Assembly (NCBI GenBank): GCA_043814765.1
Contig: JBDRJQ010000028.1
Span: forward strand, 29,835-93,834
Length of the DNA stretch: 64,000 nt
Source: Nanobdellota archaeon
GTDB taxonomy: Archaea > Aenigmatarchaeota > Aenigmatarchaeia > QMZP01
Direction: 5' to 3'
Shown here one piece after another: positions 12,923 through 62,163 of the stretch. The translations under genes were made by a program, and so were the position numbers. Under the pieces are notes generated by a model, which did not search any database, was not told the origin of the DNA, and was given only the letters and a program-made list of their open reading frames with translations. How positions within the stretch are numbered: position 1 is the first letter of the stretch; each line of letters starts with the position of its first letter.

Positions 12923-12969
12923 TTTGCAACAATTTATACGCTGAGAACTAATTATTAATTAAGAATTTT

Positions 12970-30864: not shown

Positions 30865-31596
30865 ATGCTCTACTTAATAGGTATTGGGCTTTGGAACGAG
30901 AAAGATATCTCATTGAGGGGTGTTGATGCTTGCAAAAAATGCGAGTATGTTTATGCAGAGCTATACACTGCAAAATGGGGCGGAAACATTGAAATACTAG
31001 GGAAGATTGTAGGGAAAAATATCACAATTATTAACAGACGAGATTTGGAAGAAAAATCTAAGGACATAATAGAAAAGGCCAGGGAAAGGGATATTGCTGT
31101 CCTTATGCCTGGTGATCCGCTTTTTGCAACAACTCATATAAAATTATTACAAGAAGCAAAAGAAAAAAATATAAAAACGGAAGTTATTCACTCTTCATCA
31201 ATTTATACTGCTGTAGCAGAATCGGGTTTGAATGTATACAATTTTGGAAAAACGGTTAGCATTCCTTCTCCTGAAGAAAATTTCCAACCGATTTCTTATT
31301 ATGAAGAAATTGCTAAAAACAAAGCTGCAGGACTGCACACTCTTATACTTCTTGACATAGAAATGACTGTACAAGACGCTATGAAGATTCTTTTTGAGAT
31401 AGAGGATGAGAAAAAGAAAAAGGTTATCAAAGAAGACAATAAAATAGTTGTTGTTTCGAGACTTGGTTCAAAAAACAGAATAATAAAATACGATACGGCT
31501 AGTGCCATATCAAAAGAGAGCATACCAGCTCCTGCTGCCATAATAATACCAAGCAAATTGCATTTTATAGAAGAAGAGTTCCTGGAAAAGCTTTAG
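30865..31596 (+). CDS. dph5: diphthine synthase (Dph5)
   Basis: MLYLIGIGLWNEKDISLRG... tetrapyrrole-methylase fold, 243 aa, typical archaeal DphB. Confidence 0.75.
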   Translation: MLYLIGIGLWNEKDISLRGVDACKKCEYVYAELYTAKWGGNIEILGKIVGKNITIINRRDLEEKSKDIIEKARERDIAVLMPGDPLFATTHIKLLQEAKEKNIKTEVIHSSSIYTAVAESGLNVYNFGKTVSIPSPEENFQPISYYEEIAKNKAAGLHTLILLDIEMTVQDAMKILFEIEDEKKKKVIKEDNKIVVVSRLGSKNRIIKYDTASAISKESIPAPAAIIIPSKLHFIEEEFLEKL

Positions 31597-31607: not shown

Positions 31608-31793
31608 CTATTCTTTGCTTCTTCCGGTTTCCTTTCTGTATGTTTCTGTCCATTTTATGTGTTTGCCTTGTCTGCCTTTAGTCCAGTTTTTTTCGCATTT
31701 TGATCCGCAAAAATAGAAAATCTTGCCATCGTTCTTTACGAACATTTTTCCTTTACCTTCAGGAGTTTGTTCTCCACAAAAATTACATTTCAT
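31608..31793 (-). CDS. rpl24e: ribosomal protein L24e
   Basis: MKCNFCGEQTPEGKGKMFVKNDGKIFYFCGSKC zinc-binding fold, 61 aa. Confidence 0.8.
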   Translation of the reverse strand: MKCNFCGEQTPEGKGKMFVKNDGKIFYFCGSKCEKNWTKGRQGKHIKWTETYRKETGRSKE

Positions 31794-31802
31794 AAAATAC
31801 CT

Positions 31803-32003
31803 TTACCTGTTCTGGAATCTGCCCTCAGCATCCATCGTGGTGTCCTTTAACAGCAGTATGTCGCCGACTCTTATAGGGCCCATAACATTTCTTGTCACTA
31901 TCTTGCCTTTATCATAACCGTCAAGAACGCGACACCTAACTCTGCTAACTCCTTTAACACCCATTCTTCCCATGATTTCTGTGACCTCTGCTGATGTAGT
32001 CAT
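31803..32003 (-). CDS. rps28e: ribosomal protein S28e
   Basis: [25 protein letters not shown]...[20 protein letters not shown], 66 aa. Confidence 0.8.
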
Positions 32004-32009
32004 ATTATA

Positions 32010-32372
32010 TCACTTCTTCAGTGCCTTTATTTTTGAAGCAATGTCAGCAACGATTTTTTTTGCGTCACCTTCTTCAACAACTGCTATTGAAGATGTTGGC
32101 ACGTCAATACCAGCGGATTTTCCCAGTTCAATTTTTGAAGGCACAAATGCGTATGGAACTTGCTTCTCTTCACAAAGTACAGGAATGTGCATCAAAACCT
32201 CTTCAGGCGTGACATCCTCTGCCATTACAACTAGTTTAGCTGTTCCTCTTTCTATTGCTTTTGTAGCCTCGTTTACTCCCTTTCTTATTTTGCCGCTAGC
32301 CTTTGCTACGCTTATTGCTTCATAAACCTTACTAACAAGGTCCTTTGGCATCTCGAATTTTGCTATCGCCAT
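32010..32372 (-). CDS. rpl7ae: ribosomal protein L7Ae (also a C/D and H/ACA snoRNP/RNase P subunit)
   Basis: KASGKIRKGVNEATKAIERGTAKLVVMAEDVTPEE K-turn-binding core. Conserved L7Ae-S28e-L24e cluster. Confidence 0.85.
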   Translation of the reverse strand: MAIAKFEMPKDLVSKVYEAISVAKASGKIRKGVNEATKAIERGTAKLVVMAEDVTPEEVLMHIPVLCEEKQVPYAFVPSKIELGKSAGIDVPTSSIAVVEEGDAKKIVADIASKIKALKK

Positions 32373-32391: not shown

Positions 32392-32718
32392 TTAGATTGA
32401 TTTTTTATTTATTGAGTTCTTATTTAAATGCTTGACTAGGTTTTTATAGAAATCTATAGCCTCACTAAGCATTTTTTCACCCTTTTCAGTAATATGGTAT
32501 ATTTTCTTTCTGCCATATTCTTCTTTTCTAACAAGACCTGATTTCCCTAAAAGATACAAAACTTTATAGGCAGTCATAGTACCTGGCTTGAATCCGAATC
32601 TTTTTTCTATTTCTTTGCGCAGAGTGTATGCGTGTGACGGTTCATCTTTAAGTATATGCAATATATATATCCACAAACATTCCCTAGTATTCAGTAACTT
32701 AAGACGTCTAAGAGGCAT
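32392..32718 (-). CDS. PadR-family transcriptional regulator
   Basis: 108 aa winged helix with LWIYILHILKDEPSHAYTLRKEIEKRFGFKPGTMTAYKVLYLLGKSGLV. Confidence 0.7.
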   Translation of the reverse strand: MPLRRLKLLNTRECLWIYILHILKDEPSHAYTLRKEIEKRFGFKPGTMTAYKVLYLLGKSGLVRKEEYGRKKIYHITEKGEKMLSEAIDFYKNLVKHLNKNSINKKSI

Positions 32719-32752: not shown

Positions 32753-32786
32753 TTCAAAGACGACTAAAGTCGTCAAACTATATAAT
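32753..32786 (-). promoter_or_regulatory. TATA box ATTATATAG plus palindromic operator TTTGACGAC-TTTA-GTCGTCTTTGAA immediately upstream of the PadR gene
   Basis: Perfect inverted repeat GACGAC/GTCGTC, spacer 4, abutting the TATA element, ~35-65 nt upstream of the PadR ATG (minus strand). Confidence 0.55.
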
Positions 32787-32805
32787 ATTTTACATTTGTA
32801 TAATA

Positions 32806-32910
32806 TAACCTTTACAAAACAATGTCTTTCGTAGTGTCTTGCGTTCGGTTTTGAACGCAGAAAAACAAAACCTTTATATATACATTGTTACTAGGTAATA
32901 GTAACATAGC
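32806..32910 (+). promoter_or_regulatory. promoter block X: TGTCTTTCGTA + GTGTCTTGCGT motifs, TATA (CCTTTATATATA), TAATAGTAACA at predicted TSS; followed by a ~180-nt leader
   Basis: Same motif order recurs at 37080..37200 (block Y). Confidence 0.45.
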
Positions 32911-33086
32911 TCTTTTGAACGGTAAAAGGTTCGCTGAGTTATCTTACACACGGAAAAAAAACTAGTTATTGGGTCTTAATGATCTGATAGCTTTCAACCA
33001 TAATTGGTACACTGGAACTATTTTTCAGCCTTAGGGCTCAATAATGAACGTGTGAATAAAACAAAAAAAATAAGGAGAAAACAGAA

Positions 33087-33839
33087 ATGAAGCTGTTAAA
33101 AACTACTGCCGTTCTTCTGTCGATTTTCTTTGTTCTCTGCATGGCCACTGTTTGCTATGCTGGCCCAGAAAACGGCAACGGCGCAGTTGACATTCTGACA
33201 AAGTCAGATTTGACTGATCTTCATAACACCATAATTATTGGAATTGTGGTGTTCGCATTAATCATGGTTGCGGTTATTCTTATTTTAATGTTTAGACCGC
33301 GACAAACACTTCCAGCAGTTGTTGAACTGGAACCGGAACCTGATAATCCTGAACCCAGCCCTGATTGGATGAGGTCCGGAGCAAAAAGAATAGCCAAAGA
33401 AGCGGTAGCTGGCATCGAAGAGGATCTCTCGATTGATATTGCCGGTGAATTGACAGATTTGGTAATAGGAGCAAGAACTGCTTCTGAAAACGCACGAAGA
33501 GAATTCATGCGTGTTTTCCGTCAAAGATTGAACGGTGGCAGCGATATCGATGCTCTTATAGATGAAGCCATCCGGCTAAGAGTGCGAGAACGGGGAGCTG
33601 AGCTTCCTCCGGAAGTTCTGGAACATGCAACAGATCCAACAGTTACTCAGGAAGAAGTGGATGCTCTTAACGCTGCTGTTAACACTGAAATGGCTCCGGA
33701 CCCGATTCTGACATTACTTGAGCGATTAGTGGATGGTCAGGCTGCTGCAACAGAAGCTATTCGAAATTTGACAGCTGCTGTAACACCTCCCCCTGACGAA
33801 ACATCGCATGCTCCAGACAGTAGCGGCGATGCAGGTTAA
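33087..33839 (+). CDS. secreted/membrane-anchored acidic protein (signal peptide, one TM, Pro/Glu-rich)
   Basis: N-terminal signal MKLLKTTAVLLSIFFVLCMATVCYA, TM IIIGIVVFALIMVAVILILMF. Higher GC than neighbours. AAGGAGA ribosome-binding site. Confidence 0.5.
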   Translation: MKLLKTTAVLLSIFFVLCMATVCYAGPENGNGAVDILTKSDLTDLHNTIIIGIVVFALIMVAVILILMFRPRQTLPAVVELEPEPDNPEPSPDWMRSGAKRIAKEAVAGIEEDLSIDIAGELTDLVIGARTASENARREFMRVFRQRLNGGSDIDALIDEAIRLRVRERGAELPPEVLEHATDPTVTQEEVDALNAAVNTEMAPDPILTLLERLVDGQAAATEAIRNLTAAVTPPPDETSHAPDSSGDAG

Positions 33840-33925
33840 CCCCCAACTGCCCAATAAACATGGGAGGAGAGTCTGTTCAATCAGGCCTCCTCCCAAAAAT
33901 CTCTGAACATTAAACAAGGAGGATT

Positions 33926-34405
33926 ATGATGAGAATCCTAAACATAATCTCATCTTTTTTTATTGCTTTCTGGGGACTGGTTAAGGGATTCTTCACCATT
34001 CTCCTGAAGTGCATTTGGATAGCAATCAAGTGGTTTTTCATAGCCCTTTGGAAACTGCTTAATTGGATCTGGAATAAAATCATTCTTGTCCAGAATTGGT
34101 TCAAAAGGACCAAACTTGGACGGGATTTGCGAAGAGGAAAGCGATGGCCGCGCATCACAGTGATGAGCCTAATGCTTTTCATTCTTTTTTCCGTCTTATG
34201 TTTTTCACTTCTTTTCTCCGGTCATAAAATGACTGGATTAATAATATCATTGTTTATTCTTTTTGGTCTTGTGCCTTTCTTTGGCACATGGGCCAGAAAT
34301 ATGTATCAAGCAGAGAATGCCGAACCAAAAAAGCGGCACTCAATGATTGACCATATTCCCTGGCCGTGGCTGAAAAATCATCCCTGGCGCAGAATTACAG
34401 CATAG
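33926..34405 (+). CDS. Trp-rich polytopic membrane protein
   Basis: 4 TM segments. AGGAGG ribosome-binding site 6 nt upstream. GC-rich island. Confidence 0.45.
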   Translation: MMRILNIISSFFIAFWGLVKGFFTILLKCIWIAIKWFFIALWKLLNWIWNKIILVQNWFKRTKLGRDLRRGKRWPRITVMSLMLFILFSVLCFSLLFSGHKMTGLIISLFILFGLVPFFGTWARNMYQAENAEPKKRHSMIDHIPWPWLKNHPWRRITA

Positions 34406-34459
34406 ATATCCTGATGAGGATGATTCCTGGGTGGAAAAAAAGGAAGAGAGGAGATCATC

Positions 34460-34795
34460 ATGGATGCAATTACCATCTCGGTTGGGCATCTGACATGCCT
34501 GCTATATCTCGCTTATATGGTGGGTTGGGTGCTAACCGAATTTGTCGCATATGCGACAAAAAACTTGAAGAGAAGAGGGGTAATCGTTCTGTTCTTGATT
34601 ATCCTGCTGTGCACCGCTGTTCTGTTGCATAATTTCAACAAATGGGATGCATATGGATCGTTTTTCATGGCGACTCTGTTTGTCTTCCCTCCGGCCGCTT
34701 TGGTGTTGCTTTCTCGAGAGGTAAGAGGAGGCAACAAATCAATTAGGGAGAGGATGAGAATCTTTGGTGGTGGCACTAAAGGAGATTCATCATGA
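34460..34795 (+). CDS. membrane protein (3 TM)
   Basis: GAGAGGAGA ribosome-binding site upstream. Overlaps the next gene by 4 nt (ATGA). Confidence 0.45.
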   Translation: MDAITISVGHLTCLLYLAYMVGWVLTEFVAYATKNLKRRGVIVLFLIILLCTAVLLHNFNKWDAYGSFFMATLFVFPPAALVLLSREVRGGNKSIRERMRIFGGGTKGDSS

Positions 34796-35091
34796 ACAAT
34801 TTTAATTTTATTATCGGAATCCTGGTAATCTCGACGCTTCTTTGTCTGGTTTTTGCTGTATGGAATTATCTGAAGCTCAAACGTTATCAGAACACTTATG
34901 TTTGGGCAAGTGGCAAAACTCAGAAAGGTGAGGACTTTCTCATTCTTTCAATTGAGGGTAAAGATGAGGATGCCACTCAGTATGAGTGCCATCGAGATGA
35001 AGAGGGCAAGATAACAATTATCGGACCTGCTGGTGAAAACCTTAAAGGCATTCAACACACGTTCGGTAACGGATATCGTCCTCGGATTTAG
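34792..35091 (+). CDS. small N-terminally anchored protein
   Basis: One TM then soluble domain. Translationally coupled to the upstream gene. Confidence 0.4.
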   Translation: MNNFNFIIGILVISTLLCLVFAVWNYLKLKRYQNTYVWASGKTQKGEDFLILSIEGKDEDATQYECHRDEEGKITIIGPAGENLKGIQHTFGNGYRPRI

Positions 35092-35176
35092 TTCAGGTAG
35101 AGGATGAGACCTCGTGGAACTTTAGGGTTTGATGGTGAGATACGATCAAAAATCCAAAGACCTAAGGAGGTCAACA

Positions 35177-35764
35177 ATGCAGATCGATTTGAATTACGTA
35201 GTAAACGCCATTCTGACCAACCTGGCATATGCAGTTGCGCTTGGGCTGGTTATGTGGGGAATTTGCAGGCTTCTGATAAAAGAACCTGAGGGCAATTACT
35301 GGGCACCAAGGGTCATGATGGTAATATTCCTGATCTCTGCGCTTGTCTTCACATTTTCTGTTGGAAGAATAACATTCCCAGCAGTTGACAATGCTGTAGA
35401 AAACATTTTCTCAGGTGTTTCAACATCGATAGCAAGTGCAACACCACATCCTGTGGTAAACATTCAGGTTGACACACCTCCTCCTACTGTAGTAATACAG
35501 AAGGAGACGAGTCAGCCAGTGGTCCGCGAAAGCGAACCGGTTCCAGAAACAACAGAAGGGGATACCTCAAATGAGAAATTTTCTGTAGACGGTCAGTTTG
35601 AAGATGGTACACCATACCATCTTTACACGATTGTCAGGGGCAATACCATATACAGCTTGTCCCGCAGATTTGGTGTCACCCAGGATGAACTTATGAGGCG
35701 GAACGATCTTAGGATTGGAACGCCTCTCCGTATCGGGAGGGATCTCAGGATTCCTATCAAATGA
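35177..35764 (+). CDS. membrane-anchored LysM-domain protein
   Basis: C-terminal LysM: YTIVRGNTIYSLSRRFGVTQDELMRRNDLRIGTPLRIGRDLRIP. Start placed at ATG 35177 with AAGGAGG 7 nt upstream; the ORF-track start 35129 is the alternative. Confidence 0.55.
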   Translation: MQIDLNYVVNAILTNLAYAVALGLVMWGICRLLIKEPEGNYWAPRVMMVIFLISALVFTFSVGRITFPAVDNAVENIFSGVSTSIASATPHPVVNIQVDTPPPTVVIQKETSQPVVRESEPVPETTEGDTSNEKFSVDGQFEDGTPYHLYTIVRGNTIYSLSRRFGVTQDELMRRNDLRIGTPLRIGRDLRIPIK

Positions 35765-35903
35765 AGCACAAACAATTGAATAGGTAACTTGGGAGGGGAG
35801 AAAAATCCTCCCTTTCCCTTTTCATATGTCTATCTATAGGGATATATAAATATATTTTACACTAGTAAAGTATTTAAATTTGCAAATACAATTATTTTAC
35901 AGG

Positions 35904-35935
35904 TATAAAATAGTTGACGACTTTATGTCGTCTTT
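35904..35935 (+). promoter_or_regulatory. TATA box TATAAAAT plus palindromic operator TTGACGAC-TTTAT-GTCGTCTTT immediately upstream of the inositol-phosphate synthase gene
   Basis: Near-identical to the PadR-gene operator (32753..32786) but inverted. Overlaps the predicted TSS, 13 nt before the ATG. Confidence 0.5.
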
Positions 35936-35947
35936 AGATATCAGGTG

Positions 35948-37054
35948 ATGTTTTTGAAGGAAATTAAAGTTGCTATCGCAGGAATTGGGAACTGTTGCAG
36001 TTCTCTTATACAGGGAATTCATTATTATAAGAATGTTGACTCAAATGGAGAAAGCATTCCTGGGCTGATGAACAATGTTATTGGGGGTTATAAGATAAGC
36101 GACATAAAACCTGTAGCTGCTTTTGATATTGATATTAGAAAGGTTGGCAGAGATCTGTCTGAAGCTATATTCGCTGAACCAAACTGTACTATAATATTCC
36201 ATAAGGATGTTCCTCATCAGGATGTTGAAGTAAAGATGGCTCCTGTTCTTGATGGTGTAGCTCCTCATATGAAGGAGTTTCCAGACCATCAAACATTCAA
36301 GATTTCTAATGAAAAACCAGTAGATGTAACAAAGGTTCTTAAAGAAAGCGGAGCAGAGATGCTCATCAACTACCTTCCTGTAGGTTCTGAGGACGCTGTA
36401 AGGTATTATGCTCAGGCTGCTTTAGATGCAGGATGTGCTTTTGTTAATTGTATGCCTGTTTTCATTGCGTCCACTGATGAGTGGGCAAAGAAGTTCGAGG
36501 ATAAAGGGCTTCCTATAGTCGGTGATGACATCAAGGCACAGATAGGTGCAACTATAACTCATAGAACACTCGTAAAGTTATTTTCTGATAGAGGTGTAAA
36601 GATAGAAAGAACATATCAGCTTAATACCGGTGGAAACACCGACTTCCTTAACATGATAGAGCGCTCAAGACTCAAAAGCAAGAAGATAAGCAAAACTTCT
36701 TCTGTGCAATCACAGCTACCAACTCCTTTGCATCCTGATAACATACACATAGGACCAAGTGATTATATCCCATGGCAGAAAGACAACAAGATATGTTTCT
36801 TGAGGATAGAAGGAAGGAAGTTTGGAAACGTTCCTACCCATATAGAAGCTCGTCTTTCAGTAGAAGATTCACCCAACAGCGCAGGATGCGTAATAGACGC
36901 AGTGCGCTGCGCAAAGCTAGCATTGGATCGTGGCGTAGGAGGAAGGCTGCTGTCAATTTCAGCATACACAATGAAGCATCCGCCAACACAATATCCTGAT
37001 ACTTTGGCAAAGCAGATGGTTGAAGAGTTCATCAAAGGGGAAAGGGAACGTTAA
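35948..37054 (+). CDS. myo-inositol-1-phosphate (inositol-3-phosphate) synthase
   Basis: N-terminal Rossmann KVAIAGIGNCCSSL. GDDIKAQIGATITHRTLVKLFSDRGVKIERTYQLNTGGNTDFLN resembles the MIPS catalytic region (GxDxKxGxT...NxxGN/D). Start at ATG 35948; GTG 35945 is the alternative. Confidence 0.6.
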   Translation: MFLKEIKVAIAGIGNCCSSLIQGIHYYKNVDSNGESIPGLMNNVIGGYKISDIKPVAAFDIDIRKVGRDLSEAIFAEPNCTIIFHKDVPHQDVEVKMAPVLDGVAPHMKEFPDHQTFKISNEKPVDVTKVLKESGAEMLINYLPVGSEDAVRYYAQAALDAGCAFVNCMPVFIASTDEWAKKFEDKGLPIVGDDIKAQIGATITHRTLVKLFSDRGVKIERTYQLNTGGNTDFLNMIERSRLKSKKISKTSSVQSQLPTPLHPDNIHIGPSDYIPWQKDNKICFLRIEGRKFGNVPTHIEARLSVEDSPNSAGCVIDAVRCAKLALDRGVGGRLLSISAYTMKHPPTQYPDTLAKQMVEEFIKGERER

Positions 37055-37079
37055 AATTTATATAGTATCTTGTTATTTC

Positions 37080-37200
37080 TTTATTGTCTTGCGCAAGACA
37101 AGATTTGTCTTTCGTAATGAAAACAGCACAAATCGAGCTCAAAAAGTGTCTTGCGTACCGATAGCTTTATAAAGCCTTTGTCACTATTTAATAGTAACAA
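37080..37200 (+). promoter_or_regulatory. promoter block Y: palindrome TTGTCTTGCGCAAGACAA, TGTCTTTCGTA, GTGTCTTGCGT, TATA (GCTTTATAAAG), TAATAGTAACA
   Basis: Homologous to block X (32806..32910) with insertions. Lies 36 nt upstream of the ATG of the first gene of the HerA-like operon. Confidence 0.45.
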
Positions 37201-37235
37201 TATGATAAAAACATCGAATAGGTGTGGAGGTCAAT

Positions 37236-37910
37236 ATGAGTAATATATATGTTTCGGAAAATGTTGCAAAACATTTTATACAAGGTGTGACTGATCACGC
37301 CATGGAAGGACAATTGTTAGACATAGAAGGAGAAAAAGAGTTTGTTGTAACATACAGACATGAAGGAAATTTAATTCAAAACACTTTAGTTTTTCCTGTA
37401 AGTGGAAGTATTGAAATTTCAGTAGATTCTTTAAGAAAAAAATATCCAAACATTTACAAAACATTAACAAAAAATAATGATATTGGAGATGCAGATAATG
37501 TTCTTTTATACGAAACAGATTTTACAAAACACAGAGAATTAGTTATTAGCAAAAACGCTAATAATGAAAATTTAGCAAAATATATTGATTTTAATGATAA
37601 TCGTATCCCGTCATATGCAAATAGTGAGTTTGAGCCTGTAGAGGATAATTCTTTAGATAACTTGAAAGAGTCTGCAAATTCAGACTTAGAGTATAAAAGA
37701 GTAAATGGAGTTGTAAGAAACTCACTAACATTCAACTATGGTGAAGAAGAAGCCCAGAGAATGCTAGAAAACTACGGAGAACTTTGGTTTGCTGAAAATG
37801 GTCAATTCGCAGGAGCTAGAGAATGGAATCAATTAGGTGAAGAAAAAGGTTGGGATTTCATGAAAAGGTACACTGAAGATGCAAAAAGGTTTGCACCTAC
37901 AAAAGTTTAG
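37236..37910 (+). CDS. hypothetical protein, paralog 1 of operon (N-terminal YVSEN domain)
   Basis: Start at ATG 37236 with GGAGG 6 nt upstream; the ORF-track start was GTG 37224. MSNIYVSENVAKHF...QNTLVFPVSGSIEISVDSL parallels the next gene. Confidence 0.5.
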   Translation: MSNIYVSENVAKHFIQGVTDHAMEGQLLDIEGEKEFVVTYRHEGNLIQNTLVFPVSGSIEISVDSLRKKYPNIYKTLTKNNDIGDADNVLLYETDFTKHRELVISKNANNENLAKYIDFNDNRIPSYANSEFEPVEDNSLDNLKESANSDLEYKRVNGVVRNSLTFNYGEEEAQRMLENYGELWFAENGQFAGAREWNQLGEEKGWDFMKRYTEDAKRFAPTKV

Positions 37911-37930
37911 AATTAGATTAGAGGTAAAAT

Positions 37931-38485
37931 ATGGACAATAAATATGTTTCAGAGAATATAGCATTGCTTAAGGATGTTTTGGTTAGCTATTGTATTCTAG
38001 AAGGGACATTGATAGAAGGATTGAATGAAAATGAAAGCGGTATCCCAATGTCACCAATGTTCATCAATTCGTATGATGATGAAGATGGAGAATATGTACA
38101 TTTACTTAAATCTGGTTGCGATGTTAAATCTAGAAATACACTTGTATTTGATGTTGTTGATTATGTTGAAATCGATAAAGAAACTTTCGATATAATAAGT
38201 GATACTATGGGCAGAAACAGGCACGTATATACTTCTTCTGAAAAAATAGAAGAAATGAAAAGTATTTACGATCAAGGTAAAAAAGTGCTTTTCCCATTGC
38301 TTCCGGGAAGAACCGATAATTGGATTTACAAAAAATATAGATCAATTGTGGCTAAAGAAAGAATGAAAATATTTAAAGATGTTCCTATAGTTGAAGCCAT
38401 TAGATCTGATTCCGGTAGCAGAAAACATAACAGTTATCCAGCAGGAACAGATTCTGAAAAATTGTTTGAGGGGATATTAGATTAG
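37931..38485 (+). CDS. hypothetical protein, paralog 2 of operon (N-terminal YVSEN domain)
   Basis: MDNKYVSENIALLKDV...RNTLVFDVVDYVEIDKETF. Preceded by the 23-nt element ATTAGATTAGAGGTAAAATATGG. Confidence 0.5.
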   Translation: MDNKYVSENIALLKDVLVSYCILEGTLIEGLNENESGIPMSPMFINSYDDEDGEYVHLLKSGCDVKSRNTLVFDVVDYVEIDKETFDIISDTMGRNRHVYTSSEKIEEMKSIYDQGKKVLFPLLPGRTDNWIYKKYRSIVAKERMKIFKDVPIVEAIRSDSGSRKHNSYPAGTDSEKLFEGILD

Positions 38486-38494
38486 AGGTAAAAT

Positions 38495-39100
38495 ATGGCT
38501 GAAAAGAAAGGAAGAAAATATTTCGATGCAGAAGAACTAGAGGACATCTATTCATCTGGCATAGGTGAGGAACGCAGACATGAATTCTTAGACACACCTA
38601 CATCTTGGGATGACATAGACAAAGAGCCACGTGAAAGAGTGGAAAAGGTTCGCATCAAGACAGTTCAGACAATGCCTCGTCTTGAAGAAGAAGAGATGGA
38701 CAAACTTAAGATAATCAGCCCAAAAATAATTGGCAGTCTTTTTGATAGAGTAAAATTTTTGAAAGAAAGAATAGAAGAAACACAAAACACAATGAAAATG
38801 CGTACTGATATTCATAATGACATGTTAGCAGAGATAACTGAGGATATTAAGGAAAGACAGGGAATGTTGGGAAAGGCCATGAGCCTTGACGAGCAAAGAA
38901 GCATAAAACTTGACATGTCTGTTCTTAGAAAGGAAAAAAGAAAGGAAATAATTCAGTTATGGAGAGATATGTTTGATCTAAGAACTGAACTAAAGGAATT
39001 ACTAGAACAGTTCCAAAATGAACAAAAGCTTGCAGATCTTTTCTCTGAAATAAAACCTGAGAATAATAAGAAGGGAGGCATCGGAGAATCCGATATCTAG
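38495..39100 (+). CDS. highly charged coiled-coil protein
   Basis: Glu/Lys/Arg-rich heptad pattern throughout. Preceded by a second identical copy of the 23-nt element. Confidence 0.5.
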   Translation: MAEKKGRKYFDAEELEDIYSSGIGEERRHEFLDTPTSWDDIDKEPRERVEKVRIKTVQTMPRLEEEEMDKLKIISPKIIGSLFDRVKFLKERIEETQNTMKMRTDIHNDMLAEITEDIKERQGMLGKAMSLDEQRSIKLDMSVLRKEKRKEIIQLWRDMFDLRTELKELLEQFQNEQKLADLFSEIKPENNKKGGIGESDI

Positions 39101-39113
39101 GCAGGTTATAATT

Positions 39114-41351
39114 ATGATAGACATAAAAGAAAGATTATTCACTAGCGAAGTTAAGAAACTTATTCCAATCCTAGGCAGGGTTAATGTTGAAAGACTTAGC
39201 AAGGCATACTTGCTTGGTGATGAAGATACCAGATTAAGAATCTTCGAATTAATAGACGTAGCTAAGGCTGCTGTTTTCAGCGAAAACGAGCTTGGCGAAA
39301 GCATATTAATGGAGCCGCCTGAAAAAGAAGCTGTAGCTAAAGGAGAATTGACTCTTGGCAGTGTTCTTTATGGAAAGAAAAAAATGTATCCATTGAGATT
39401 CGAAAAGCAAAGGCTTTTGATGCACATGGGTATATTCGGTTCGTCTGGTTATGGTAAAACAAACCTTGCTCACAAAATGATACTAGAAATGGCAAACGAG
39501 GAATTGCCTATATTGATATTTGATTTCTCAAAGAGAAATTACAGAAAGCTATTAAGAACACCACTAAAGGACAGAATAGATATTTACACCGTGGGCAGAA
39601 ACACATCACCATTCAAATTCAATCCGCTTGTTCCTCCTGAAGGCATTCAAATGTCTCAGTGGATGAAGGAGTTCTCATCTGTATTCGATCATGCTTATTT
39701 CCTTATGGGCGGTGGTAGGCACATAATTATGAAGGCTTTTGACGGAGCTTTCGATGAGTCTGAAAAAACACCAAGATTGAGGGACCTTAAGGATTGGATA
39801 AACGAATACGCAGAACTCAAACTGCCAATGAGAGAGAAGAACTGGATAGCAACAGCTGCAAGGCCGTTGGATTCTCTAGTCTTCAGGGAAATTGGAGAGA
39901 TATTTGATTGTGATGTTGGTGTAAGGCCGTCTGATTTTTTCAAGAAAGGCAAGATAACTATTCTTGAACTGGATGCTCTTGACACTAATGACAAGACATT
40001 TTTCATAGAAATACTGTTACAGTGGATAAGAGATTGGCTTTTGGTAAACGATAAAAGAGAAGAGCTTATAGGAGCCATTATTTTAGAGGAAGCGCACCAT
40101 GTTCTGAACCGTGAAAAATCTATAAGAACTGGTTCAGAAACTGTTATGGATCTTTTGTTCAGAGAGATTAGAGAGCTAGGTCTAGGCATTATTTACTTGG
40201 ATCAGCACCCATCTTTAGTTTCTTATCCGGCTCTGGGTAATACATCTACTCATATTTATATGAATCTGGGACTTGATACAAAGCAGTCTTCAGATATACT
40301 AGATGCAACTCACATGCTTGGATTAGATTATGAAGAGGAAGGCAGCTATCTCAGAAGGCTTCCTGTAGGACAAGGCTTTATGCTTTGCAGAAACTTCGAA
40401 TTCCCAAGACCATTCCTTGTAAACTTCGATGAAGTGAAATTCACTGAAAAGGTAATAAAGGATGAAGAAGTAGCAGAACTGATGAAAACATACGACAAGA
40501 TTGTATCCAAACCAGTAGAACATAAAGTTGCAGAAAACATACCCAAAGAAGTAGTTAAGAAAACAAATGAAATAACAAGCGATATACAAAAAGCTGCTAA
40601 TGATCTTTTACGGGAAATAAAGCTGCTTACAGAAGAGTCTAGGGAATATGCTAAAGAAGAGTATATGGAAGACGCTAAAGAAGATGTAGTTGAGGAACCT
40701 GAAGAAAGAACAGAAATTATAGAACCTAAAATAGAAACACCAAAATTAGAAGACGTTAGCACAGTGGATATGCCCTTAGATAAGATAGACAAACAGGCAT
40801 GGAAAATAATTGATGTTGTTGGTAACGGTCATGGTGCATTTGCATCACAGATATACAAAAACGCCAGAGTATCTGGCACTGTTTTCAATGAAAAAATAGA
40901 GACACTTTTAGACCTGGGCTTAATTAAGCGTGTTGGTGGCAAAAGTGGCAAGAACAAGCTTCATTTTTATTACTTGACTGAAAAGGGAGAAAGGACATTT
41001 GATAGCAACTTCAGAAGATATGAAGGTGCTGTGGATGCTGACCTTTCAGGATTGCTAGAGCTGTTCTCTTTAGTCGGATGGAAAGCTACTCGTAAAGTAG
41101 ACATTCTGGAAATAACCAAAGAGGATGAGATACTTCCAGTTGCAATTATAGATTACACAGACAAAAATAAAATGTACGAAAGACTAAAGATAAACAAACA
41201 TTTTGTATGCGCAAACGAGACGCTAAAAAACATATTGGTGCAACAGGCAGCCAAGCGTTCATTAAAGAAACCAGGATTAACAATATTCGTTTCTACATTC
41301 AAGGATTTTGAAGATAACACAAAATTCGACAAAATAGAGTTCGATATTTGA
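39114..41351 (+). CDS. HerA/FtsK-superfamily (DUF87/AAA_10-like) ATPase fused to an acidic linker, a winged-helix domain and a C-terminal domain
   Basis: Walker A MGIFGSSGYGKTNLAHKM, Walker B DEAH-like IILEEAHHV, IYLDQHPS sensor-like motif. wHTH IYKNARVSGTVFNEKIETLLDLGLIKRV...YYLTEKGERTF. Confidence 0.6.
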   Translation: MIDIKERLFTSEVKKLIPILGRVNVERLSKAYLLGDEDTRLRIFELIDVAKAAVFSENELGESILMEPPEKEAVAKGELTLGSVLYGKKKMYPLRFEKQRLLMHMGIFGSSGYGKTNLAHKMILEMANEELPILIFDFSKRNYRKLLRTPLKDRIDIYTVGRNTSPFKFNPLVPPEGIQMSQWMKEFSSVFDHAYFLMGGGRHIIMKAFDGAFDESEKTPRLRDLKDWINEYAELKLPMREKNWIATAARPLDSLVFREIGEIFDCDVGVRPSDFFKKGKITILELDALDTNDKTFFIEILLQWIRDWLLVNDKREELIGAIILEEAHHVLNREKSIRTGSETVMDLLFREIRELGLGIIYLDQHPSLVSYPALGNTSTHIYMNLGLDTKQSSDILDATHMLGLDYEEEGSYLRRLPVGQGFMLCRNFEFPRPFLVNFDEVKFTEKVIKDEEVAELMKTYDKIVSKPVEHKVAENIPKEVVKKTNEITSDIQKAANDLLREIKLLTEESREYAKEEYMEDAKEDVVEEPEERTEIIEPKIETPKLEDVSTVDMPLDKIDKQAWKIIDVVGNGHGAFASQIYKNARVSGTVFNEKIETLLDLGLIKRVGGKSGKNKLHFYYLTEKGERTFDSNFRRYEGAVDADLSGLLELFSLVGWKATRKVDILEITKEDEILPVAIIDYTDKNKMYERLKINKHFVCANETLKNILVQQAAKRSLKKPGLTIFVSTFKDFEDNTKFDKIEFDI

Positions 41352-41598
41352 GCTCAAACACAACATGTTGTGGATTAATTTTAAATAAGTTAGTGGATAA
41401 AGTATAACTATCACAATAAGTATCATAATCTCAATTCACTAATTTGACTTGCAAAGTCCTTCGCATTAGCTCAACACTAACGCGTCGAATTTAAAAAGAA
41501 TGTTTTCCCATTAGCATCTCGCTAGTGGATAGGATATGCAACATTTCATAAGTGTTGGGTATCCTTTTTCTTGACGACTTCTCAGCGTTAAGCTGATC

Positions 41599-41626
41599 AG
41601 CAGCTAGAAATAGCTGCTATTTTTTT
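41599..41626 (+). terminator. hairpin AGCAGCTA-GAAA-TAGCTGCT followed by ATTTTTTT
   Basis: Perfect 8-bp stem, GAAA loop, T7 run. About 250 nt downstream of the HerA-like gene stop. Confidence 0.45.
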
Positions 41627-42494
41627 GACGACTACCGATTTCTAGAAGACCGTCCAACATGAATTCTACGCACAGCACTCTACAAATTCAGGGTGCAGGT
41701 GTATGAGAGACAGTCTATATGACTAGGCTTGAAATAGGTCTCTCGCTGAATGCAACTCTTTGATGGTAATTCTAGATAACCTGATAGGAGGAGAGACCTG
41801 TTTTTGAAAGTAAGCGTCAGTTTCTGTAACGGATTCTGACGATGGTTATAAAAACAGGGCTTTCACTTCGGTGTTAGCCCTACGAAAACAATCAGCAGCT
41901 TGTCTGCGCTTTCATTTAGCGGTTTCAAGTTCGGAAATCAACATCCGAACCGTTAAGATGTCACAGGTGCGCTTACATATTAGCGCGCCTGTTTTTTGAG
42001 AATACGGAACTTGGGGAAACCCTGGATCCTTTTCTACCAAGAGGAAGAGAGCCACAATTGAAGATTCGGCCTTACTAAAAGCTGGGCCAACCCCTTCATA
42101 AAGGATTGAACCTCTTGGTTTTTTGAAAACAATGCAAAGCCGGATCATAAAAACTGTCCAATGATCCGGCAGCTTAAATAATGGACAGGCAAGATCCACA
42201 ATACATTCGAATCGCGGTTCAAACCACAATTTCGGTTTCGGGCGCTTGTAATCACAGCACGACAGAAGAGTTCTTATTTAATGAACTCACATCGTTTCTC
42301 CACTCATCTGCAAGTAATTCTTCGTCCTGCAGCAGTCTCCTTCCACCTTTCCTTCCGTAACGCCTCCACCGATTCTAGTTTACGGCACAATATCTTCTGG
42401 CACAGTATCTTCTGGGATTGTATAAAACGAAGTAACAATTTCCCAGATTGATACAAATTTAAACGCGTCTCTCTTCCCCCCGTAAAAAGGGAAA

Positions 42495-42531
42495 GTGCCC
42501 GACTCCTTCCGCGACTCGGGCACTTTTTTTT
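42495..42531 (+). terminator. GC-rich hairpin GTGCCCGA-N13-TCGGGCAC followed by TTTTTTTT (intrinsic-terminator-like)
   Basis: 8-bp G/C stem plus T8. Would end a + strand transcript arising in the ORF-free region. Confidence 0.45.
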
Positions 42532-42910
42532 GTCCAGCTCATGACTACCGAAAGCAAGGATCGATGATTTAAACATTTACCTGAAACAGCGTGTAATCGG
42601 CACGCATACTCCAGGAATCAACAGATAGATGAGGAGGCCCGAAAAACAAATTAATAATCGCACGAAAGTTGTATTGGTTTTTCAAAAACCTATTCGGTAA
42701 AATCATTGCACAGCCAACAAGCGGTGCAAAATTAACTCAAAAAAGAGAACGGCACTTTGAGGTAAATGAGACATTATTGAATTTAAGCGACACCGAAAAG
42801 AGCCAATCTTAAACGCAGAAGCGATGATCAAACCATCCTTCTGCTTCTTTACATATATCTACTAAAAGGGATATAAGCAATAATCTGCAAACATGCTTCA
42901 AACAAAAAAA

Positions 42911-43216
42911 TTACTTCTTTTTGATGTACTTCTTGAACCATTTAAGAATTGTCCAGCGAGAAACCTTGATCCCGTGCCTGTGTTTCATCTCCTGCTGCAC
43001 CTCGGACAGAGAGAGGCCTTTACTGTAGAGAGCTACAGCTTTCATTATTGTATCTTTTTTGAACCTCATCCGCAGGAAATTGTCGTTTGGGGTATACTTG
43101 CGTCCGCACTTTTTACAGAGCCGAAGGTGCTTTTTAGTTGACTCGTTATACCTAAAACCTCTCCACACAGTGTTTGTGCTCTGGCAATGCGCACATCTCT
43201 CAATTTTATCTTTCAT
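42911..43216 (-). CDS. zinc-ribbon + HTH transposase-like protein (IS1 InsA-like/ISNCY-like helper); possible IS remnant
   Basis: CAHCQS...C-x-x-C (CKKCGRKY) N-terminal zinc ribbon then HTH GLSLSEVQQEMKHRHGIKVSRWTILKWFKKY. No catalytic transposase ORF nearby. Confidence 0.4.
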   Translation of the reverse strand: MKDKIERCAHCQSTNTVWRGFRYNESTKKHLRLCKKCGRKYTPNDNFLRMRFKKDTIMKAVALYSKGLSLSEVQQEMKHRHGIKVSRWTILKWFKKYIKKK

Positions 43217-43254
43217 ACTTAATTAAACTTATAGGGATATATAAAGCTTTCTCT

Positions 43255-44961
43255 CTACATCTTCTCAGGTGCCTCTATACCCAACAGAAATAAAGCGTTC
43301 TTAATGGTAATTTTTGCTGCTTTGACCAGAGCCAAACGCACTTCAGCAGTATTTTTGTCAGCTTTCAGTACGGGAAGCGCCTGATAAAACTCGTTAAAGG
43401 CTGATGCCAGCTCATAGACATAGTTCACTATGTAATGGGGTCTGTAGTCCCTTGCAGAATTCTCAATTGTCTGGGAAAAGTTAGAAATTATTTTTATAAG
43501 CCTTTTTTCCTTGTCGTCAACTAATAGGGATGCATCAAATTCTATTGGTTTTGTTTTTGCCTTTCTCAAAATAGAAGATGCCCTGGCATAAGTGTACTGC
43601 ACATAAGGCGCACTGTTGCCCTGAAAATCCAGTGCCTGATCCCAGTCAAATATTATAACCTTTTCAGGTGACTGCATTATCATGCTGTACTTTATTGCGC
43701 CCATTGCAACCTGCTCAGCTATTTTCTTGTGTTCTGCTGCAGAAAGAGCTGGGTTCTTTTCTTTAGTTGCTTGCAGCGCTATAGCGTACAGCTTTGACTT
43801 AAGCTCATGGTAAAGTATAACTTTTCCTTCTCTGGACTTCATCTTGCCTGTAGGAAGGTTAACCAGTTCGTAGGATAAATGGCATTCTTTTTTAGCAATC
43901 GGATCGCTAATAATCTCCAGTGTTTTAAAAAACTGCTGAAAGTAAAGTTTTTGCTCAGAACCGACGACATGAATTATCAAATCTGGATTGTATTCTTTGT
44001 TTTGAAGCCTTGCCAGAGCAAATTCTTTTGTTGAATAAAGGGCTATTCCATCCTTTCTCAGCACTAAGAATATGCCCAGACCGTATTCTTTAAGATCTAT
44101 TATCAAAGCACCATCGCTTATTTTGAATACCCCCTTTTTATGCAAATCCTCTACTATTTTTCTTCCTGGTGCTTCAACTTCTGATTCCATGTAAAGCCTG
44201 TCAAACTTTGCTCCAAAATCCTTGTAAATATCATCAAAATAATCAAGGCTCCATTTCCTTCCTGTTTTCCATATAGAAACCAGTTCTTTATCGCCAGCGT
44301 ACAGTTTTTTATTTATCTCATCAATCTCTTCAGTGACTTTTTGATTTAGGCTTGCCTTTTCACTGGATTCTTTGTAAACATCGCCAAGCCACAAACCTTT
44401 ATGAACATTTTTTGGTGGTTTCTTTTTATAGATATTTATCAAACCCCACAGAGCTTTTGCTACATGCGGGCCTATATCACCTTGATAATTTGCCCTCACT
44501 GTTTTATGGCCTGAAAACTCCAGGACACGCGACAGGGATTCACCAAGGGCTATGTTTCTAACATGACCTATATGAAATCCTTTGAATGGGTTTGGATGGG
44601 CATACTCCACCATTATTGTCTTTCCTTTACCGTCAACAGAACTTCCATATTCTTTTCCTTCCCTTAACACATCTTTCAGAACCATATCGCTGAATTTTTC
44701 TGAGTCAGCATAGAAGTTTATGTAAGGGCCAACAGCTCTTACCTCGCGCAACAGACCTTTTGGTTTTACTTTGGATGCGATCTGTCTTGCTATGTCTGCT
44801 GGACTTTTCTTGAATTTTTTTGCAAAAGCAAAACATGGTAACGCAAAGTCTGCACCGATGTTTTCAGGTGGCTTTTCTAAAAATTCTTCTATCTGTTTTT
44901 TTGGAAGATGTTTTTTCAAAAGCATTGTAACTTCGTCACGGATTTTTTTGTTAACATCCAT
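43255..44961 (-). CDS. argS: arginyl-tRNA synthetase
   Basis: HIGH motif FHIGHVRN, KMSKS-like GKMKSREGK, C-terminal DALR anticodon-binding region, 568 aa. Confidence 0.8.
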   Translation of the reverse strand: MDVNKKIRDEVTMLLKKHLPKKQIEEFLEKPPENIGADFALPCFAFAKKFKKSPADIARQIASKVKPKGLLREVRAVGPYINFYADSEKFSDMVLKDVLREGKEYGSSVDGKGKTIMVEYAHPNPFKGFHIGHVRNIALGESLSRVLEFSGHKTVRANYQGDIGPHVAKALWGLINIYKKKPPKNVHKGLWLGDVYKESSEKASLNQKVTEEIDEINKKLYAGDKELVSIWKTGRKWSLDYFDDIYKDFGAKFDRLYMESEVEAPGRKIVEDLHKKGVFKISDGALIIDLKEYGLGIFLVLRKDGIALYSTKEFALARLQNKEYNPDLIIHVVGSEQKLYFQQFFKTLEIISDPIAKKECHLSYELVNLPTGKMKSREGKVILYHELKSKLYAIALQATKEKNPALSAAEHKKIAEQVAMGAIKYSMIMQSPEKVIIFDWDQALDFQGNSAPYVQYTYARASSILRKAKTKPIEFDASLLVDDKEKRLIKIISNFSQTIENSARDYRPHYIVNYVYELASAFNEFYQALPVLKADKNTAEVRLALVKAAKITIKNALFLLGIEAPEKM

Positions 44962-45197
44962 AATATTATTTTGTTTGTATATCTATAAGTTTCAACTCCC
45001 TTGCTTGTGCACGGCATACAATTCTGCGAGAACATCTGGAAACTCCCCTGTCTTACTCCAGGAATCGACGAACTTCATGTTGACAGGATTGTGCATGATT
45101 TCCCCAGGCTCCGTTTCGCCACTCAACACGAATATTTCATTTATGTTCTTTTAGAATCCCCTTGAAATAGATTCAATCATATTAATCCAGAAGATTC

Positions 45198-49970: not shown

Positions 49971-49991
49971 AATTCATCCACAAATATAAGA

Positions 49992-51914: not shown

Positions 51915-51936
51915 GTTTTATATTGGGTTTGGGGTA

Positions 51937-52968: not shown

Positions 52969-52979
52969 ATTTGGGGGTC

Positions 52980-55079: not shown

Positions 55080-55178
55080 GTTTTATATTAGGAGTGGGGG
55101 GGTTATTAAAATTCTTGTTGAGATGGGTAAGAATTTTCAGTTTGATGGGTTTAATGAAATAAGATTGATGGAAGGATA

Positions 55179-55970: not shown

Positions 55971-56079
55971 TGATTAATTATTCGTTGAGCTGTTATAATA
56001 ATTAAGAGCTGCTTCCTTATCTGATAAGACGCCATTAAGCAAGAGTAATAAATATCTCCGACACTATAATAATTTATAT

Positions 56080-58404: not shown

Positions 58405-58469
58405 TTATGAAAATTTCTAAATAGATAACTTTTATAAGTGTGCTTAACGATATTATAATACAGAGTAAA

Positions 58470-59087: not shown

Positions 59088-59146
59088 AATAAAAATATAC
59101 AACAAATCTTTTTAAGATATTGATACAACTATAATAAAGTGTTCAT

Positions 59147-60058: not shown

Positions 60059-60098
60059 TTTCGAATAATTCTTATAGCAGAAAACTAATAATAAATAT

Positions 60099-62048: not shown

Positions 62049-62086
62049 ATAATCATTTCAAATAATTTCTTATTTGTTAATTGATT

Positions 62087-62137
62087 AATTGCCACTTAGG
62101 TAACTAAATTTTATTGCCACTTAGGTAACTAAATTTT
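62087..62137 (+). repeat. tandem direct repeat, 2 x ~25 bp (ATTGCCACTTAGGTAACTAAATTTT) in the promoter region of the downstream gene
   Basis: Two adjacent near-identical copies seen directly in sequence, 27 nt upstream of ATG 62164. Confidence 0.7.
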
Positions 62138-62163
62138 TATACTATATAACTATATAATATTAT

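Follow-up and report, generated by a model that had tools for sequence, protein, structure and literature searches.

Does the DNA between a cluster of ribosomal protein genes and the gene for arginyl-tRNA synthetase (ArgS) in a Nanobdellota archaeon derive from an integrated element, or does it belong to the chromosome? The window, by which we mean the whole 64,000-nucleotide stretch that was analyzed (contig JBDRJQ010000028.1), is archaeal DNA with a G+C content (GC) of about 38%, and the interval in question lies at 32.7-43.2 kb within it. The interval includes an operon for a small protein, p201, and a HerA/FtsK-superfamily ATPase, which we call HerA. A first-pass annotation had read the interval as one integrated or accessory block of about 10.5 kb, reaching from the L7Ae cluster to argS. 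That claim fails, as the skeleton of the interval, with its flanking genes, recurs in deeply diverged DPANN genomes. We think it likely that the interval is a vertically inherited chromosomal neighborhood of a DPANN (Nanoarchaeota-type) archaeon, with swaps of cargo at one site (slot A) and probable co-regulation. The structural part of this explanation, i.e., an old skeleton with lineage-specific slots and no integrated element, is well supported.

The fixed skeleton consists of two units. The first is a PadR regulator that is divergent from the gene for myo-inositol-1-phosphate synthase (IPS), with common TATTTTACA-N4-TAWA operators. The second is a two-gene core operon, p201 and the HerA/FtsK-type ATPase (presumed hexameric), behind a promoter with GTCTT[T/G]CG boxes. 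Lineage-specific sequence makes up about 5.8 of the 10.5 kb and is split over three independent slots: slot A, the gap between PadR and IPS, holds five orphan membrane or LysM proteins; slot B, the gap between the HerA-operon promoter and p201, holds the genes for p228 and p184; and slot C, the gap between HerA and zn101/ArgS, holds 1.56 kb of structured non-coding DNA. So the word "accessory" fits the three slots and does not fit the conserved PadR-IPS-p201-HerA-zn101 backbone. The gene map is based on a listing of open reading frames (ORFs) and on scans with Pfam, NCBIfam, PHROGs, and PADLOC. The backbone genes are:

29645-30832, plus strand: Obg-like GTPase
30865-31596, plus strand: TP-methylase (diphthine-synthase-like)
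31608-32372, minus strand: L24e, S28e, and L7Ae
32392-32718, minus strand: PadR-family regulator (Pfam PadR, PF03551, 48.6 bits versus a cut-off of 27)
35945-37054, plus strand: IPS (Pfam Inos-1-P_synth, E = 5e-35)
38495-39100, plus strand: p201, the conserved partner of the ATPase, whose gene directly precedes that for HerA in almost all of 87 related loci
39114-41351, plus strand: HerA/FtsK-superfamily ATPase of 745 residues (Pfam DUF87, 48.6 bits versus a cut-off of 23.2)
42911-43216, minus strand: zn101, a stand-alone protein of 101 residues with a Zn-ribbon and a helix-turn-helix (HTH), with a leaderless-type promoter TTTATATATCCCTAT at 43231-43246 on the minus strand
43255-44961, minus strand: ArgS, the right anchor of the backbone (domain scan; orthologues lie downstream of HerA in relatives)

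Gene order in DPANN relatives and tests for a mobile element

The 87 related loci (numbered from L001) came from contig look-ups of HerA homologues, a genome scan, and a profile-based metagenome scan, and all proteins of the window were compared with them by tblastn. (A scan of genome contigs with the single protein yielded one locus, which belongs to the species of L001.) More than 400 homologues of the HerA-like protein, at about 45-70% identity, are present in DPANN metagenomes, and the named ones are from metagenome-assembled genomes of Nanoarchaeota and Aenigmarchaeota. L001, L003, L008, and L009 represent a single species, which is the closest relative and the only close one for comparisons at the level of cassettes.

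The comparison that had been named beforehand as the test of the island, that of gene order in relatives, came out against it: the order is kept across diverged DPANN loci. The arrangement (GTPase, TP-methylase)/L24e-S28e-L7Ae-PadR/IPS/0.2-3 kb/p201-HerA is found in L004, L007, L009, L010/L011, L021/L023, L048, and L063, and it is visible in part in L017, L020, L039, and L067. Farther on, past HerA, ArgS is found in L001/L003, L004, L007, and L048, and also in the short contig L053. In several distantly related DPANN contigs, zn101 and then ArgS complete the order. IPS orthologues, which are 66-79% identical, occupy the same position. The genomes that bear this backbone are far from the window (39-74% identity for ArgS where the backbone is present, within a wider range of 35-74%; 70-89% for L7Ae; and 48-69% for HerA), with L009 being the closest (74% for ArgS and 89% for L7Ae). 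Across loci, the identity of HerA roughly tracks that of L7Ae, IPS, and ArgS, as expected for vertical descent. An empty site, with L7Ae directly beside ArgS, occurs in none of the 87 loci. Because deeply diverged genomes keep both the order and its flanks, and because there is no empty site, we argue that the whole block is ancestral chromosome. By their conservation and setting, HerA and zn101 are core genes and not markers of mobility.

The alternative is that all of 32.7-43.2 kb is one decayed mobile element, i.e., the remnant of a plasmid, a virus, or an integrative and conjugative element, in which HerA was the transfer or packaging ATPase and zn101 is what is left of a transposase. HerA/FtsK ATPases do serve conjugative elements and viruses, and this one has weak, sub-threshold matches to the TrwB, VirB4, and CedD profiles. 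Also, composition is patchy along the region, hairpin terminators are in excess, and zn101 resembles the N-termini of IS6 and IS1 transposases. Nevertheless, we find a single element very hard to credit, and we consider that the conserved gene order has already refuted it. The genes for IPS and PadR are interspersed among those of the supposed element. Scans with Pfam, NCBIfam, and PHROGs of all ORFs of at least 99 residues at 32.4-45 kb found no catalytic integrase, recombinase, or transposase, which agrees with the first-pass annotation in that it had seen no integrase. The 64-kb window has no tRNA and no match to Rfam. We did not find flanking repeats of the attachment-site (att) type, and the direct repeats that are present are promoter or operator motifs that are kept at the same places in relatives. 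Scans of IMG/VR, both with a single query and with a profile, did not turn up the HerA family; scans of IMG/VR with two slot-A proteins (the LysM protein and p250) were negative as well. The slot-A cassette and the non-coding stretch had no DNA match by blastn in plasmid and phage collections, and PHROGs and PADLOC gave only weak ATPase, LysM, or Zn-ribbon matches on the region.

Two sets of repeats, D2 and D8 (at 35818, 42847, and 43216), were considered as att sites and rejected, as the AGGGATATA motif is promoter-like and recurs both in many loci and at other places in the window. In the form A(A/T)AGGGATATA(TAAA), it is found between genes at 35838, 42867, and 43233, and also at 28500, and many of the related loci have it too. 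This motif is probably a promoter element that is typical of the lineage and resembles a B recognition element with a TATA box (BRE/TATA), and this would account for the D2/D8 repeats.

The gene that had been described as transposase-like is zn101, and it turns out to encode a conserved DNA-binding protein without a catalytic domain. Its HTH part (residues 47-98) aligns with positions 1-52 of the 202 positions of an IS6 transposase profile, at 39.9 bits versus a cut-off of 125, and residues 8-99 align with positions 1-81 of an IS1 profile, below threshold. We rejected an IS6 or IS1 insertion sequence: there is no DDE domain and there are no terminal inverted repeats, the gene is present in a single copy, and its orthologues are conserved (49-81% identity in L001, L004, L005, L007, L034, L048, L053, L063, and L079). 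In L053, the orthologue directly adjoins ArgS, in the same orientation. zn101 behaves like a gene of the host, and it may have been domesticated. We also note that zn101 and its promoter (42911-43250 in the window and 8720-9057 in L001) are inverted in L001/L003/L009 relative to the window. As L004, L048, and L053 have the orientation of the window, the inversion is derived in the relative.

The patchiness in composition is real. GC is 0.42-0.44 at 33-36 kb and 0.35-0.36 on the left side, and GC at third codon positions (GC3) is 0.44-0.49 in three genes of slot A, a very low 0.20-0.24 in the two genes of slot B, and 0.57 in zn101, as compared to about 0.30-0.37 in backbone genes. But in tetranucleotide distance, 32.7-43.2 kb is no outlier, as it stays within 1 standard deviation of the mean of the window (maximum z of about 1.0). 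Stronger outliers in the window are at 46-48, 55.5-59, and 62-64 kb.

Operators and the three variable slots

If the region is old chromosome, then what are the palindromes, the repeats, the GC-rich genes, and the structured DNA? The features that bear on this question are:

32759-32806, no strand assigned: PadR promoter region, with a GACGACTAAAGTCGTC hairpin (32759-32774) and one TATTTTACA-N4-TAWA operator (32786-32802)
32808-32945, plus strand: slot-A promoter and start of the 5' leader, with boxes at 32824 and 32836, a TATA box at 32873-32882, the palindrome TGTTACTAGGTAATAGTAACA at 32886-32906, and a conserved leader start
33087-35764, plus strand: slot-A cargo, five genes led by Shine-Dalgarno (SD) sites, GC-richer and lineage-specific
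33087-33839, plus strand: p250, two predicted transmembrane (TM) segments
33926-34405, plus strand: p159, three predicted TM segments
34460-34795, plus strand: p111, three predicted TM segments
34792-35091, plus strand: p99, one predicted TM segment
35129/35177-35764, plus strand: TM and LysM protein, the last gene of the cassette
35791-35817, plus strand: hairpin and T-run at the end of the cassette (in L009, a corresponding hairpin and the DNA that follows it are conserved)
35838-35932, plus strand: IPS promoter, with two TATTTTACA-N4-TAWA operators (35853-35869 and 35893-35909) and a GACGACTTTATGTCGTC hairpin (35916-35932)
37086-37199, plus strand: HerA-operon promoter, with boxes at 37086, 37092 (minus strand), 37107, and 37148, a TATA box at 37166-37175, and the palindrome TGTCACTATTTAATAGTAACA at 37179-37199
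37224-38485, plus strand: slot B, with p228 (37224-37910) and p184 (37931-38485), between the HerA-operon promoter and p201
41352-42910, plus strand: slot C, 1.56 kb, free of ORFs, rich in hairpins, and lineage-specific (folding, ORF, and terminator scans)

Orthologues of PadR (55-82% identical) adjoin L7Ae and IPS in L004, L007, L009, L010, L021, L048, and L063. In relatives, PadR is always the divergent neighbor of IPS, and in L004, L010, L020, L021, L023, L039, L048, L063, and L067 just 50-160 bp separate the two. The inverted operator palindromes that had been reported are there, and both kinds, the TATTTTACA-N4-TAWA sites and a 21-bp palindrome, are far above chance expectation. The window has three TATTTTACA-N4-TAWA sites (at 32786, 35853, and 35893) versus 0.01 expected, and the hairpins at 32759-32774 and 35916-35932 are both of the form GACGAC..GTCGTC. 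In 15 related loci, TATTTTACA-N4-TAWA is found exclusively in the PadR-IPS intergenic region, usually as two copies just 5' of IPS. It is a putative PadR operator that would control both IPS and PadR itself, and its conservation points to control of inositol-phosphate synthesis by PadR. In the lineage of the window and L009, the insertion of slot A split the PadR-IPS region and stranded one copy of the operator (32786) on the PadR side.

The gap between PadR and IPS is 3.2 kb in the window, and the GC-richer cassette accounts for 2.9 kb. In family scans, the slot-A proteins belong to no family except for the LysM domain of the last one, and all five have predicted TM segments. None of them has a tblastn match in the 87 loci, and p250 and the LysM protein matched only themselves in libraries of 1.84e9 representatives and of 5.8e9 sequences. 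The first-pass annotation had described a GC-rich island with foreign translation signals. The high GC stands, but "foreign" was an over-reading: AGGAG(G) SD sites precede all five cassette genes, and they also precede about 13 of the 48 other genes, among them L7Ae and the genes of the HerA operon, so the translation signals of the cassette are native.

What, then, is the cassette? L009 also has an insert between PadR and IPS, of 1.34 kb, and its cargo (a 140-residue protein and a 165-residue TM protein) is not similar to that of the window. The flanks are 75-83% identical overall. On the left, the promoter with its palindrome and the first 40 or so nucleotides of the leader are conserved (window 32770-32945, about 83% identity); on the right, conservation resumes from about 35810, with the terminator and the IPS promoter. 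So the window and L009 have conserved flanks around unrelated cargo at the same locus, as in a replacement islet, and slot A looks like a replacement-type cassette. We infer that homologous recombination in the conserved flanks would swap the cargo, much as happens in flexible genomic islands of the replacement type.

Two observations on folding should be mentioned here. The leader start (window 32906-32945 and L009 4700-4740) contains a small stem whose arms read GAAC...GTTC in the window and AAAC...GTTT in L009; a single compensatory pair like this is insufficient for calling a structure. Also, the coding cargo of slot A folds better than its shuffles, with a mean plus-strand z of -5.8 in L009 (4880-5730) and -1.7 in the window (33087-35764), as compared to about -0.3 in backbone genes.

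The repeat promoter blocks of about 100 bp that had been noticed at first were confirmed: 32820-32906 and 37080-37200 have boxes, a TATA box, and the palindrome in common. The 21-bp palindrome, TGTYACTA-N5-TAGTWACA, has exactly two sites in the 64 kb (32886-32906 and 37179-37199), with 0 expected and none in shuffled sequences. There are eight GTCTT[T/G]CG boxes in the window versus 2.0 +/- 1.5 expected, and six of the eight are in these two blocks. L001/L009 keep the palindrome at the HerA-operon promoter. Boxes cluster 5' of p201 not only in the window but also in L001, L002, L004, L005, and L007. In L001, L005, and L007, a CGAAAGCTTTATAAA-type BRE/TATA element comes after the boxes, and the window, L002, and L004 have variants of it. 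Within 400 bp upstream of p201 homologues, the density of boxes is 3.0 per kb, 18-fold that of 0.17 per kb over 1.01 Mb of loci, and an exact match is present in this span in 39 of 72 loci. (A scan for sigma-70 promoters was uninformative, with 30 sites versus 30.3 expected.) Given this conservation, we read the palindromes and the repeat blocks as conserved promoter or operator elements rather than as the ends of an element. In this lineage, the 21-bp palindrome sits directly after the TATA box, which is where a repressor operator would be expected.

A second cluster of boxes lies just 3' of HerA in L010/L011 (L010 6961-6994), L056 (12267-12344), L057 (10713-10790), and L079 (12233-12244). 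In these loci, it precedes SD-led operons of small proteins, mostly with TM helices or signal peptides, that are not conserved between lineages. In L055, a cluster at 12952-12993, about 4.9 kb downstream of HerA, has no clear membrane-protein operon after it. In the window, the slot-A cassette is the counterpart of this second module: its promoter has boxes, a TATA box, and the palindrome that is also present at the HerA operon. Because the same 21-bp palindrome and GTCTT[T/G]CG boxes are in both promoters, the slot-A cassette and the HerA operon are probably co-regulated. The earlier idea that the two belong together thus survives as a probable link through promoter architecture, and not as a common mobile element.

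Slot B is simpler. p228 and p184 have weak N-terminal paralogy and no match in the 87 loci. In L001, the slot contains a single ORF of 60-83 residues, and in L002, L004, L005, and L007, nothing separates the promoter from p201, as is the case in most relatives. A 23-nt sequence, ATTAGATTAGAGGTAAAATATGG, consisting of stop context, SD site, and ATG, is repeated exactly on either side of p184 (37912-37934 and 38476-38498), which suggests that a gene was gained through duplication or recombination at the junction sequence. Internal repeats had been claimed for the HerA-like operon, and we found them: besides this repeat and the paralogy, there is a 24-nt tandem repeat within the HerA gene.

Slot C is indeed structured and non-coding, with terminator-like hairpins, as had been proposed. 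The two halves fold better than their shuffles on the plus strand (z = -9.0 and -5.3) and less strongly on the minus strand (-4.9 and -3.9). There are several units of a hairpin and a T-run, all on the plus strand, and terminator-like hairpins in the region number 16 versus 7.0 +/- 2.5 expected. The small ORFs within it do not look protein-like. In other lineages, this position is occupied by genes, often for large secreted proteins; we considered whether slot C is a pseudogene of one of those, and no trace was detectable (the best tblastn hit had E = 9.3). Slot C resembles no other sequence in the comparisons made, and this includes an equally ORF-free stretch of 1.29 kb that takes up the same place in L001/L009.

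Is slot C decayed cargo, or could it be a cluster of structured, functional non-coding RNAs? The bias of folding and of hairpin units toward the plus strand would fit, and in five other lineages the ORF-poor DNA that follows HerA likewise folds more strongly than coding controls (mean plus-strand z of -1.6 to -2.2 versus about -0.3). On the other hand, no Rfam family matches anywhere in the stretch at gathering thresholds (the best sub-threshold E-value was 0.13), and the sequence is not conserved even in the equivalent gap of the closest relative. Also, the coding cargo of slot A has a similar excess of folding, so the signal may reflect imported DNA. On balance, we think that an RNA cluster is rather unlikely.

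Possible roles of the ATPase and the cassette proteins

The p201-HerA operon is an uncharacterized branch of the HerA/FtsK superfamily, outside of HerA-NurA, Ced, and the known defense families, and a literature search for a described HerA/DUF87 system in DPANN gave nothing relevant. In an alignment of homologues, the Walker motifs GSSGYGKT and EEAHH are invariant. The AlphaFold2 model of HerA, with a predicted local distance difference test score (pLDDT) of 72, has a HerA-type core, a disordered acidic linker (508-552) that holds the tandem repeat, a confident winged helix with a weak sub-threshold match to HTH_45, and a C-terminal alpha/beta domain. A search of the PDB by sequence gave no match, and a search by structure with Foldseek ranked Sulfolobus HerA (4d2i, E = 1e-11) first, followed by HerA-NurA, DndH, SIR2-HerA, and VirB4. 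The protein has no predicted TM segment, and its NCBIfam scores are far under the cut-offs (51 versus 600 bits for CedD and 27 versus 800 bits for HerA_antiphage). As for p201, its AlphaFold2 model has a disordered N-terminus and then a long hairpin of two helices (residues 82-185, pLDDT above 90). Its fold matches were insignificant and of the coiled-coil type; they include hairpins of the YscO/CdsO type, which bind secretion ATPases, and this is a lead only.

Many HerA ATPases serve in defense, and some of these (SIR2-HerA, DUF4297-HerA) are among the structural matches, so p201-HerA might be an anti-virus system and the variable slots might be ordinary cargo of a defense island, functionally unrelated to the membrane cassette. 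The neighborhood is variable, as this would predict, and PADLOC gives weak matches of the ATPase domain to mad8 (3e-14) and to HerA models (1e-7 or weaker). But no match exceeds a curated threshold, the operon partners have no match in PADLOC, and we found no effector-like partner such as a nuclease or an NADase; the universal partner is a helical hairpin protein. Also, the family is unusually conserved (45-70% identity) and is syntenic with ribosomal and tRNA-synthetase genes across DPANN, which is atypical of patchy, mobile defense genes. A defense system seems quite improbable to us.

Our own idea is that the ATPase and the fast-evolving envelope proteins are functionally coupled and may act together, in membrane-associated translocation or in a function at the cell surface or in contact with a host. 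This is tentative, and we lean somewhat against it even as we propose it. Several points weigh against this idea or against the broader account of an old neighborhood with swapped, co-regulated cargo. The common promoter elements speak for likely co-regulation and not for a physical or functional interaction. The slot-A promoter of L009 has the palindrome and lacks the boxes (relative to L009, the window has a 42-bp insert that bears two boxes). In several relatives, no membrane-protein operon lies beside HerA within the sequence covered. The mechanism and timing of recombination at slot A are inferred from one close-relative species, and the tetranucleotide signature of slot A lacks a clearly foreign character. 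Finally, in L002, RPA and RadA lie directly upstream of the operon, which fits a role in DNA repair.

Given RPA and RadA in L002, we take a chromosomal DNA-maintenance machine (for repair, segregation, or resolution) to be a serious alternative. The boxes would then mark a stress or DNA-damage regulon, with slot A as a co-regulated passenger. The nearest solved structures are the DNA translocases HerA and HerA-NurA, the ATPase bears a C-terminal winged helix, and the HerA-clade genes for CedB and CedD in Sulfolobales are inducible by DNA damage (PMC11868833). But NurA, Mre11, and Rad50 are present neither in the operon of the window nor in the annotated neighborhoods of L001, L002, L004, L005, and L007, and a second box promoter for membrane or secreted proteins recurs beside HerA in several lineages, which is more than a random passenger predicts. 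Overall, we consider DNA maintenance unlikely, if a little less so than its competitor in defense.

To return to functional coupling, its strongest form would be that the p201/HerA-winged-helix operon, its box promoter, and the co-regulated, swapped operon of membrane or secreted proteins together form an undescribed apparatus for envelope-associated translocation or host contact that is widespread in DPANN. This is speculation by analogy, and we think that it is probably wrong in this full form. If true, the apparatus would be functionally analogous to Ced or to type-IV-like systems; the hairpin of p201 would serve the hexameric motor as a stalk or an adaptor; and the variable cassette, including the LysM protein with its potential for binding glycans, would fit the machine to different hosts. 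Either way, the p201-HerA operon is a testable candidate for a function that is tied to the DPANN lifestyle. The leads to follow are the operon itself, as a well-conserved HerA-type ATPase and a hairpin protein in hundreds of DPANN metagenomic contigs, its promoter signature, and the recurrent, hypervariable operons of membrane proteins.

The flank beyond ArgS and likeness to known systems

If the flagged 10.5 kb is not an accessory region, there is a better candidate nearby. A block of 17.1 kb just beyond ArgS (44962-62113) contains nine large genes, including those for a 1590-residue BNR/sortilin protein, two transglutaminase-like proteins, and several unknowns, and it is missing in the closest relative, where ArgS is directly followed by a homologue of window 62114-62706. 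Its GC is 0.42-0.45, and it includes the strongest tetranucleotide outliers (46-48 and 55.5-59 kb) except for the repeat region at 62-64 kb. In that repeat region (window 62700-64000, and 11300-17200 of L003), there are repeat units of about 300-500 bp, with many copies in the relative, and the tetranucleotide deviation is the highest in the window. The repeats probably encode a repeat-domain surface protein.

An island-like set of oddities that are found together thus becomes an ancient syntenic block with native regulatory DNA and three small variable slots. As a caution, composition and repeats alone can mislead calls of mobile elements in fast-evolving and poorly sampled genomes such as those of DPANN.

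How does the region compare with what is known? Like the N-terminal module of IS6/IS1 transposases, zn101 has a Zn-ribbon and then an HTH, with sub-threshold profile matches; unlike those transposases, it is a single-copy gene without the DDE domain or the terminal inverted repeats, and its orthologues are often near ArgS. Among HerA/FtsK translocases, the ATPase of the window is typical in having a DUF87/HerA domain above the Pfam threshold, invariant Walker motifs, and HerA-like structural matches. It differs in its low identity to the listed solved chains (11-17%, or 12-17% for HerA, HerA-NurA, DndH, SIR2-HerA, and VirB4), in having no NurA, SIR2, or DUF4297 partner, in its additional C-terminal winged helix and extra alpha/beta domain, and in that the family is always paired with a helical-hairpin protein of 170-205 residues.

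In the crenarchaeal Ced system of DNA import, the HerA-clade ATPases CedB and CedD are co-induced with the small membrane proteins CedA, CedA1, and CedA2 (PMC11868833, PMC9905601), i.e., the ATPases work with small membrane proteins under common inducible control (PMC11868833). The likeness to the window, where a HerA-clade ATPase and small multi-TM proteins have a common promoter signature, is an analogy only. The match to CedD is under the cut-off, the cassette proteins have no family match and no detectable homology to CedA, the ATPase has no TM domain, and the system of the window is from another phylum and is known from its sequence alone.

PadR regulators are known from autoregulated divergent pairs, and here too the likely target, IPS, is divergent from PadR, and the palindromic operators in the region between the two are kept across lineages. 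The differences are that in this lineage the slot-A insertion separates regulator and target and that the operators were recognized by sequence.

The closest parallel for slot A is with replacement flexible genomic islands. Such islands occupy one chromosomal site and carry different cargo, usually genes for the cell envelope, between conserved flanks. Slot A likewise is bounded by conserved sequence (the promoter and leader to the left of the cargo, the terminator and then the IPS promoter to its right) and has no integrase; it holds genes for membrane or surface proteins that most relatives lack, and the closest relative has unrelated cargo there. Slot A is very small for such an island (2.9 kb), and the comparison that suggests its exchange covers one close relative. 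So the phenomenon, small replacement cassettes within a conserved syntenic block, is known, and what is new is this example of it around an uncharacterized and widespread HerA-type operon of DPANN: unlike the known islands, slot A lies under a conserved, apparently operator-controlled promoter that is common to the conserved operon next to it.

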